From Escherichia coli (GTDB lineage Bacteria; Pseudomonadota; Gammaproteobacteria; Enterobacterales; Enterobacteriaceae): a stretch of DNA of 64,000 bases. Made by a program: the position numbers and the translations under genes. Location of the stretch: assembly GCF_003334405.1 (NCBI RefSeq), contig NZ_QOWM01000003.1, one strand, 5' to 3'. Each line of letters begins with the position of its first letter. The first letter of the stretch is position 1. This document shows positions 30,918 through 31,283 of this stretch, piece after piece. The notes below the pieces were generated by a model that did not search any database, was not told the origin of the DNA, and saw only the letters and a list, made by a program, of their open reading frames with translations.

Positions 30918-31061
30918 ATGTGTGGCATTTTCAGTAAAGAAGTCCTGAGTAAACACGTTGACGTTGAATACCGCTTCTCTGCCGAGCCTTATATTGGTGC
31001 CTCATGCAGTAATGTGTCAGTTTTATCTATGTTATGCCTGCGGGCGAAGAAAACAATCTAA
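30918..31061 (+). CDS. yobF: Small protein YobF (47 aa), co-transcribed with cspC
   Basis: Not in track. ATG start; translates to [47 protein letters not shown]; the stop is 12 nt before the cspC ATG. Confidence 0.8.
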
Positions 31062-31073
31062 GGAATTTTTCAA

Positions 31074-31283
31074 ATGGCAAAGATTAAAGGTCAGGTTAAG
31101 TGGTTCAACGAGTCTAAAGGTTTTGGCTTCATTACTCCGGCTGATGGCAGCAAAGATGTGTTCGTACACTTCTCCGCTATCCAGGGTAATGGCTTCAAAA
31201 CTCTGGCTGAAGGTCAGAACGTTGAGTTCGAAATTCAGGACGGCCAGAAAGGTCCGGCAGCTGTTAACGTAACAGCTATCTGA
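31074..31283 (+). CDS. cspC: Cold-shock-family protein CspC
   Basis: Track ORF 69 aa, [37 protein letters not shown]... Confidence 0.96.

Follow-up and report, generated by a model that had tools for sequence, protein, structure and literature searches.

The yobF-cspC locus of Escherichia coli raises the question of whether the translation of a cold-shock gene depends on the small ORF immediately upstream. In the window, by which we mean the whole stretch of 64,000 nucleotides that was analysed, an ATG-to-TAA ORF of 47 aa occupies 30918..31061 (+), the cspC ORF of 69 aa occupies 31074..31283 (+), and the intervening segment 31062-31073 is exactly 12 nt long. A sequence-only reading of this DNA had placed the yobF stop 12 nt before the cspC ATG and had noted a clean terminator after cspC; its coordinates, its description of the ORF and the 12-nt distance were all correct. 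From this arrangement it had proposed that the two genes are co-transcribed and that cspC may be translationally coupled to yobF.

The 861-nt segment 30600-31460 was 100% identical to E. coli K-12 MG1655, and the region was found in 5423 of 5426 complete E. coli genomes. It is the same locus as the K-12 yobF-cspC operon (b1824-b1823), with mgrB and yebO upstream and rlmA and mntP downstream, and no difference was found. In the RefSeq annotation of the K-12-identical locus, yobF encodes a DUF2627 protein (WP_001295496.1), and the csp gene product is WP_001062678.1. The YobF family, PF10736 (DUF2627), had a precomputed match on all but one of 74 homologues, and the YobF ORF of the window was 98% identical to one of these (P0003). 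In the window and in five other genera, yobF lies directly upstream of cspC on the same strand. The cspC product belongs to the 69-70-aa cold-shock-domain class of the CspA family, and PF00313 is recorded on its orthologues. ORF statistics were uninformative, since 34 ORFs of at least 20 aa were counted in 1.7 kb here and a single 47-codon ORF is not above chance; yobF is regarded as a real gene because of the published experiments. The yobF-cspC pair of the window is thus an already annotated and experimentally studied E. coli operon. We observed that RefSeq/PGAP calls the csp gene at 31074-31283 'cspE' (transcription antiterminator/RNA stability regulator CspE) in all the E. coli records listed. 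Its sequence and its place beside rlmA identify it as K-12 cspC, and the true cspE adjoins pagP/crcB; the label is a naming trap for automated comparisons. The features used below are as follows.

30856..30884 (+): probable yobF promoter read from the sequence, with the -35 TTGCCA (30856-30861), a 17-nt spacer and the extended -10 TGtGATAAC (30876-30884).
30891..30917 (+): yobF 5'UTR of 27 nt, with the SD sequence GAGGU (30901-30905) ~12 nt from the AUG; the 5' end is taken from PMC5230787.
30891..31028 (+): nucleotide-frozen block of the cspC leader (5'UTR and yobF codons 1-37), delimited by the lack of three-base periodicity, invariant wobble, a neutral synonymous fraction and rare indels.
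30918..31061 (+): yobF, a 47-aa small protein ORF (PF10736/DUF2627) with the start context AUGUG; PMC11429745 reports that it is expressed, that its product associates with membranes and that complementation requires its start codon.
31029..31073 (+): variable part of the leader, with the GCC-N4-GGC hairpin (31036-31045), an A-rich spacer and the cspC SD sequence UAAGGA (31059-31064) containing the yobF stop; delimited by indels, hairpin conservation and high posterior probability in the Rfam alignment.
31074..31283 (+): cspC, a 69-aa cold-shock-domain protein, identified from its sequence, its PF00313 orthologues and a strongly coding substitution pattern.
31329..31356 (+): intrinsic terminator of the operon, identified by its fold and by alignment to the terminator hairpin of the Rfam cspA model.

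The proposal of co-transcription agreed with published work in which yobF-cspC is treated as an operon (PMC8599858, PMC13162491). In Salmonella, yobF and cspC form one operon and deletion of yobF is polar on cspC (PMC8599858). In E. coli, the operon promoters have been named yobFp1, yobFp2 and, within the operon, the intragenic cspCp8 (PMC13162491). The probable promoter TTGCCA-17-TGtGATAAC was nearly invariant in 111 distinct sequences among the matches listed, and its position was consistent with the measured yobF 5'UTR of 27 nt, from which we placed the transcription start site at 30891 (PMC5230787). A promoter scanner called another, overlapping site (GAGACA-18-CATAAT, 30836-30865). The terminator was also confirmed; it consists of a 10-bp hairpin at 31329-31353 (-14.3 kcal/mol, z = -3.3 against shuffles) followed by a U-run. 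This UUUUU run overlaps the 3' arm of the hairpin, and a simple terminator scanner missed the site because the A-U extension of the stem takes part of the T-run. The bicistronic yobF-cspC mRNA would be ~465 nt long, from a start site near 30891 to the terminator at 31329-31356.

Several observations were made on the DNA upstream. The block 30820-30855 (TTTGTGCGTCTGATCGAGACATGTTTAAAAATGG), just before the -35 element, was highly conserved across genera, and the sequence before ~30815 was not conserved; this block may be a UP element, a second promoter (yobFp2) or a regulator binding site. The intergenic region of ~600 nt from yebO to the yobF promoter (30249-30855) is AT-rich and poorly conserved, carries a terminator-like hairpin at 30533-30550 and contained no Rfam match. 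Gathering-level Rfam matches elsewhere in the window were SraC/RyeA (-) overlapping SdsR/RyeB (+), and sroD (+) (15265-15409, 50407-50492), which are known E. coli sRNAs with no connection to the yobF-cspC pair. In the W3110-derived K-12 genome NZ_CP165600.1 and in strain KFu023, an IS1 element was found directly before yobF or at its 5' end, and the annotated DUF2627 ORF left there is 45 aa long. These insertions match the published description of the yobF-cspC operon as an IS insertion hotspot in ageing colonies (PMC13162491).

The signals for translation initiation were then compared between the two cistrons. The cspC SD sequence UAAGGA contains the yobF stop codon UAA, lies at 8-nt spacing from the AUG, forms a duplex of -6.0 kcal/mol and had an unpaired probability of 0.73 in the full transcript. 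The fold around the yobF/cspC junction was weaker than that of shuffles (z = +1.2). The possibility that the cspC ribosome-binding site is occluded until yobF translation opens it was rejected on the basis of these two values, the unpaired SD and the weak local fold. The yobF SD sequence GAGGU lies 12 nt from its AUG and had an unpaired probability of 0.34. It has been reported that yobF has no SD at the canonical distance (PMC5230787), and its long SD spacing has been remarked on (PMC9841429). According to a ribosome profiling preprint, yobF and cspC illustrate how extremely translation efficiency can differ between genes of the same operon (bioRxiv 10.1101/109264), which implies that ribosomes arriving from yobF account for few of the initiations at cspC. 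The searchable literature yielded no direct test of how mutating the yobF start codon affects cspC translation. The start of yobF itself has an unusual context, AUGUG, in which an overlapping GUG at 30920 opens a 5-codon frame (GTG TGG CAT TTT CAG TAA; 30918-30937 region). A published list of genes with AUGUG starts includes yobF, and the SD spacing was judged too long for ambiguous initiation (PMC9841429).

To follow the junction across species, we searched a single genome of each species, using a pattern in which the first two positions of the ten yobF codons 16-25 were fixed. The scan yielded at least 114 usable loci, ranging from Escherichia to Yersinia, Serratia and Brenneria; diverged leaders fall outside this sample, and Erwiniaceae, Morganellaceae and Hafniaceae were absent among the matches listed. 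Within the 114 species among these matches, the yobF stop most often lay 39-42 nt before cspC (55 species); a distance of 11-13 nt was seen in 31 species, 23 of which had exactly 12 nt, one of 25-26 nt in 12 species and one of 81-83 nt in 4, and the two ORFs overlapped by 14 nt in another 10. The length of the YobF ORF varied accordingly among the matches listed: the commonest form had 38 aa (55 species), followed by those of 47 aa (30), 43 aa (12), 56 aa (11) and 24 aa (4), and forms of 48 aa and 9 aa each occurred in a single species. The 38-aa form ends 39-42 nt before cspC, and the 56-aa form accounts for the 14-nt overlap in the 10 species in which cspC was located. By comparison, the position of the csp start was almost fixed among the matches listed: it lay 156-159 nt after the yobF ATG in 113 of the 114 species, and the ATG-to-ATG distance was within this range in 113 of 113 measurable loci. 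The 38-, 43-, 47- and 56-aa classes result from many 1-2-nt indels in 31029-31073, and the gap is 12 nt where the first in-frame stop of the Escherichia-type frame is the UAA inside the cspC SD. From this comparison, the 12-nt gap appears to be a lineage-specific by-product of 1-2-nt indels in the tail of the ORF, not a conserved coupling device.

The nucleotide sequence of the leader behaved very differently from that of a coding region. Between E. coli and Brenneria, the identity at codon positions 1/2/3 was 81/89/96% for yobF codons 1-26, compared with 97/99/63% for cspC and 67/71/36% for the neighbour rlmA. Among the wobble bases that the search pattern left free, seven of nine were invariant in 114 of 114 species and one in 113 of 114 among the matches listed; the ninth, the sole variable one, switches Glu/Asp. 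Over 111 distinct sequences among the matches listed, the conservation of codons 1-26 was 0.96/0.97/0.97 at the three codon positions, with no three-base periodicity, and high conservation ran on through the yobF 5'UTR and the promoter. The 5'UTR had a mean pairwise identity of 93% across species among the matches listed. In codons that the pattern did not fix, the numbers of variable sites at positions 1/2/3 were 6/7/1 in yobF codons 1-15 and 10/8/7 in codons 26-37, compared with 6/3/53 in cspC (among the matches listed). Indels were rare in the block 30891-31028; some shift the frame, and two within codons 1-37 are in frame.

The substitutions told the same two genes apart. Of the single-nucleotide codon variants in yobF among the matches listed, 8 of 38 were synonymous (21%), which equals the neutral expectation (p = 1), compared with 74 of 77 (96%, p = 1e-45) in cspC; these counts refer to distinct variants and not to independent events on a tree. 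Purifying selection on the YobF amino acids was not seen in this distinct-variant count from the 114 species among the matches listed, and the replacements tolerated include V>D, K>I, L>Q, C>N/Y and S>F. In five species among the matches listed (two Trabulsiella, Yokenella, Klebsiella indica and strain LSJC7), a frameshift or early stop has cut the ORF to 9-24 codons, and the downstream nucleotides, which are untranslated there, were 36/38 to 81/84 identical to the consensus, like those of intact lineages. As a source of constraint we also considered, and rejected, a second ORF overlapping yobF in a different frame or in antisense: variable sites were about equally frequent at yobF codon positions 1 and 2, no single alternative wobble phase was seen, and nothing about the ORFs listed in other frames or on the minus strand spoke for it. 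Collectively, the comparative data gave clear signs of constraint on the RNA or DNA sequence of the leader, not on the YobF peptide.

These comparative results must be set beside the published evidence on the protein. YobF is a validated E. coli small protein that has been detected with tags and by ribosome profiling, the checks of yobF translation that the sequence-only reading had proposed (PMC11429745). Low Mg2+ induces YobF with its mRNA unchanged, and His-tagged YobF associates with membranes (PMC11429745). Post-transcriptional induction of YobF by heat was reported earlier, as cited through PMC11429745 and PMC13162491. Deletion of yobF causes a growth defect in low Mg2+, which a plasmid complements only when the ATG is intact (PMC11429745). 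This start-codon-dependent complementation in trans argues that the YobF peptide matters in E. coli, and there is some tension between it and a peptide that looks neutral. The same holds if yobF is viewed as a regulatory leader ORF: it is translated (PMC11429745), its start codon is invariant and its peptide is neutral, yet complementation in trans points to a function of the peptide.

We also examined the relation of the leader to those of the cspA family. The Rfam model RF01766 (cspA thermoregulator) matched 30898-31358 with 135.5 bits against a gathering score of 78, covering model positions 1-428, and this score came from the coding region and the terminator. The yobF leader alone gave no match to RF01766 even at E = 10, and pairwise leader alignments against cspA, cspB, cspG, cspI and cspE gave z ~0 against dinucleotide shuffles, compared with z = 9.5 for cspA versus cspB. 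The 5' part of the RF01766 alignment had low posterior probability and many non-canonical pairs, and the alignment was confident only at the hairpin and the SD region. A GCC-N4-GGC element was found 19-28 nt upstream of the start codon in the cspC, cspA, cspB, cspG (GCCGAAAGGC) and cspI (GCCCAAGGGC) leaders, but not in that of cspE; the chance of this motif anywhere in 200 nt is roughly 0.05 per leader. Its stem was kept in 109-110 of 111 sequences among the matches listed, with a variable loop, and in E. coli the hairpin (31036-31045) encodes YobF residues 40-43. We take this hairpin to correspond to the 'upstream box' that Yamanaka, Mitta and Inouye reportedly described for cspA in 1999. For the 5' 140 nt of the yobF region, homology to a cspA-type 5'UTR was therefore rejected; the two have no more in common than the GCC-N4-GGC hairpin and the SD region. 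The cspC leader thus resembles those of cspA, cspB, cspG and cspI in being long and in having the GCC-N4-GGC element, an A-rich stretch and an AAGGA-type SD before a homologous coding sequence and terminator. It differs in that its 5' 140 nt show no detectable similarity, that it carries a translated ORF and that cspC is not cold-induced; the cspA leader is not known to contain such an ORF.

A stable conserved RNA fold as the cause of the frozen nucleotides was not supported. The predicted structure was no more stable than that of shuffles for the full leader (z = +1.4) or for 30891-31030 (z = -0.2). In a long hairpin proposed by alifold, a compensatory change was present in 1 of 51 pairs, and this covariation test had no power either way because the leader sequences hardly vary. 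Dual-function RNAs and leader ORFs offer a hypothetical likeness, in which the yobF segment would likewise be both translated and constrained as RNA; SgrS/SgrT is an example of a dual-function RNA, and mgtL is an ORF in the mgtA leader. Like mgtL-type leader ORFs, yobF is a small ORF in the leader of a stress gene and is induced post-transcriptionally by low Mg2+ and heat.

Factors acting on the leader and the mRNA have been reported. The yobF ribosome-binding site is the reported pairing region of the sRNAs OxyS (PMC10965054) and CyaR (PMC5861431). Pairing of OxyS there was proposed to lower CspC (PMC10965054), and this proposal implies some dependence of cspC on events at yobF. The stability of the cspC mRNA depends on RNase E and ProQ, and cspC is described as constitutively expressed at 37 °C and not cold-induced (review PMC7858274). 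In MS2-affinity data for CyaR, the adjacent genes mgrB, yebO and yobF (29743-30248 and 30918-31061 in the window) all ranked near the top for mRNA enrichment, at ratios of 339, 93 and 38 (PMC5861431). Three separate pairing sites, or longer transcripts that read through, could account for this.

On this evidence, we weighed several explanations of the locus. In true translational coupling, ribosomes that finish yobF would reinitiate at the cspC AUG, or yobF translation would open the cspC ribosome-binding site, and cspC output would follow yobF translation. The geometry is in keeping with this: as in the coupled pairs trpB-trpA and mgtS-mgtT, the latter with an overlap (PMC11429745), the stop-to-start distance on one mRNA is short, and with the yobF UAA inside the cspC SD a ribosome that ends there in E. 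coli sits on that SD, so some reinitiation is physically possible. The reduction of CspC proposed for OxyS at the yobF ribosome-binding site (PMC10965054) also fits, as does the weakening of cspC-dependent phenotypes by a Salmonella yobF deletion, although the latter effect was attributed to polarity of the deletion cassette (PMC8599858). Unlike in trpB-trpA and mgtS-mgtT, cspC has an independent and accessible SD, the cistrons are very unequally translated and the junction is not conserved. A sequestered downstream ribosome-binding site, comparable translation rates (judged from the literature only) and a conserved junction, which mark coupled pairs, were all lacking, and lineages with a yobF of 9-24 codons retain cspC and its leader. 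Coupling of cspC to yobF was therefore not supported, given the accessible SD of cspC, the unequal translation (bioRxiv 10.1101/109264) and a 12-nt junction in only 23 of the 114 species among the matches listed, where the commonest stop is ~40 nt upstream; we consider it very unlikely. As the 12-nt junction is a probable lineage-specific accident of the reading frame, it should not be read as evidence of coupling. An indirect effect, of the kind exerted by upstream ORFs, is easier to accommodate but is still an unlikely account of the locus. Here yobF translation would shield the long leader from Rho-dependent termination or RNase E, so that sRNAs and stresses that alter yobF translation would alter the cspC mRNA without reinitiation. 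The length of the leader (~183 nt) and its start codon (30918-30920), which was conserved in at least 99.5% of the 111 distinct sequences among the matches listed, are consistent with this, as are the targeting of the yobF ribosome-binding site by sRNAs (PMC10965054, PMC5861431), the sensitivity of the cspC mRNA to RNase E and ProQ (PMC7858274) and the post-transcriptional induction of YobF by low Mg2+ (PMC11429745) and by heat (cited through the same paper). An ORF whose start is kept while its peptide is under no detectable purifying selection would also suit a role for the act of translation rather than for its product. However, a weakly translated yobF would afford limited protection, lineages with an ORF of 9-24 codons exist, and the frozen wobble positions along 37 codons are left unexplained.

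Two other explanations concern the conservation itself. It could be the ordinary coding conservation of a functional small membrane protein, the leader having no separate function at the RNA level. That YobF is made, associates with membranes and complements the low-Mg2+ defect only with its ATG (PMC11429745) speaks for this, and so do the two in-frame indels in codons 1-37 and the recognition of the family as PF10736. Nevertheless, synonymous variants are just as frequent as expected under neutrality, wobble positions are conserved as much as the others or more, radical replacements are tolerated, frameshifted lineages keep the untranslated downstream sequence, the C-terminal third shifts frame between genera, and the 27-nt 5'UTR and the promoter are conserved to the same degree. 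Protein-level conservation by itself is hence a highly improbable explanation. The yobF region could instead be a homologue of the cspA thermosensor 5'UTR that acts as an RNA thermometer. The RF01766 match above the gathering score and the shared hairpin upstream of the SD pointed in this direction, and the leader is similar in length to the cspA 5'UTR, which is 159 nt long. The leader alone was without a cspA match, the leader comparisons gave z ~0 and the 5' alignment to RF01766 was of low posterior probability with many non-canonical pairs; moreover, cspC is constitutive at 37 °C and not cold-induced (PMC7858274). An RNA thermometer of this type is thus very doubtful.

The reading that we prefer, with a probability of about 80%, is that yobF-cspC is a known bicistronic mRNA in which yobF is weakly translated and cspC is independently initiated, with the 12-nt gap a by-product and selection acting on the leader RNA. 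According to this model, yobF would be translated weakly because its SD is mis-spaced and partly paired, and cspC would have an accessible SD of its own, at which ribosomes initiate independently and with far greater efficiency. Selection would preserve the length and the nucleotide sequence, wobble included, of a leader of ~183 nt. This leader would be a post-transcriptional control region for cspC, operating through sRNA pairing at the yobF ribosome-binding site, through the access of RNase E, ProQ or Csp proteins and through the GCC-N4-GGC hairpin of the csp family. Translation of yobF may affect cspC only indirectly, through mRNA protection or Rho polarity. As for what the leader does, a single-stranded platform for sRNAs, RNases or Csp proteins is plausible, as is an effect of yobF translation on mRNA survival.

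More tentatively, and with somewhat less than even confidence, we propose that the conserved entity is the cspC leader RNA of ~183 nt itself, whose nucleotides would be frozen irrespective of codon position from Escherichia to Yersinia, Serratia and Brenneria, and that it is a dual-function element controlling CspC. The yobF ORF would ride on this leader, with a peptide that evolves neutrally and a C-terminus reset by frameshifts. Earlier work had annotated yobF, detected YobF and given it phenotypes, and had described the operon together with its promoters, 5' end and sRNA regulators. What the present analysis adds is that, in its evolution, the yobF region resembles a constrained non-coding leader and not a protein gene; no description of a nucleotide-frozen leader with a neutrally evolving YobF was found in the searchable literature, and Rfam holds no family for this leader. 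If this proposal is true, part of some published 'YobF' phenotypes could stem from the RNA or from the act of translation and not from the peptide. CspC is a global RNA chaperone, and loss of yobF-cspC is repeatedly selected in ageing colonies and under acetate stress. The phenotypes of yobF deletions would be read differently once the control is assigned to the leader RNA, the translation of yobF or the peptide.
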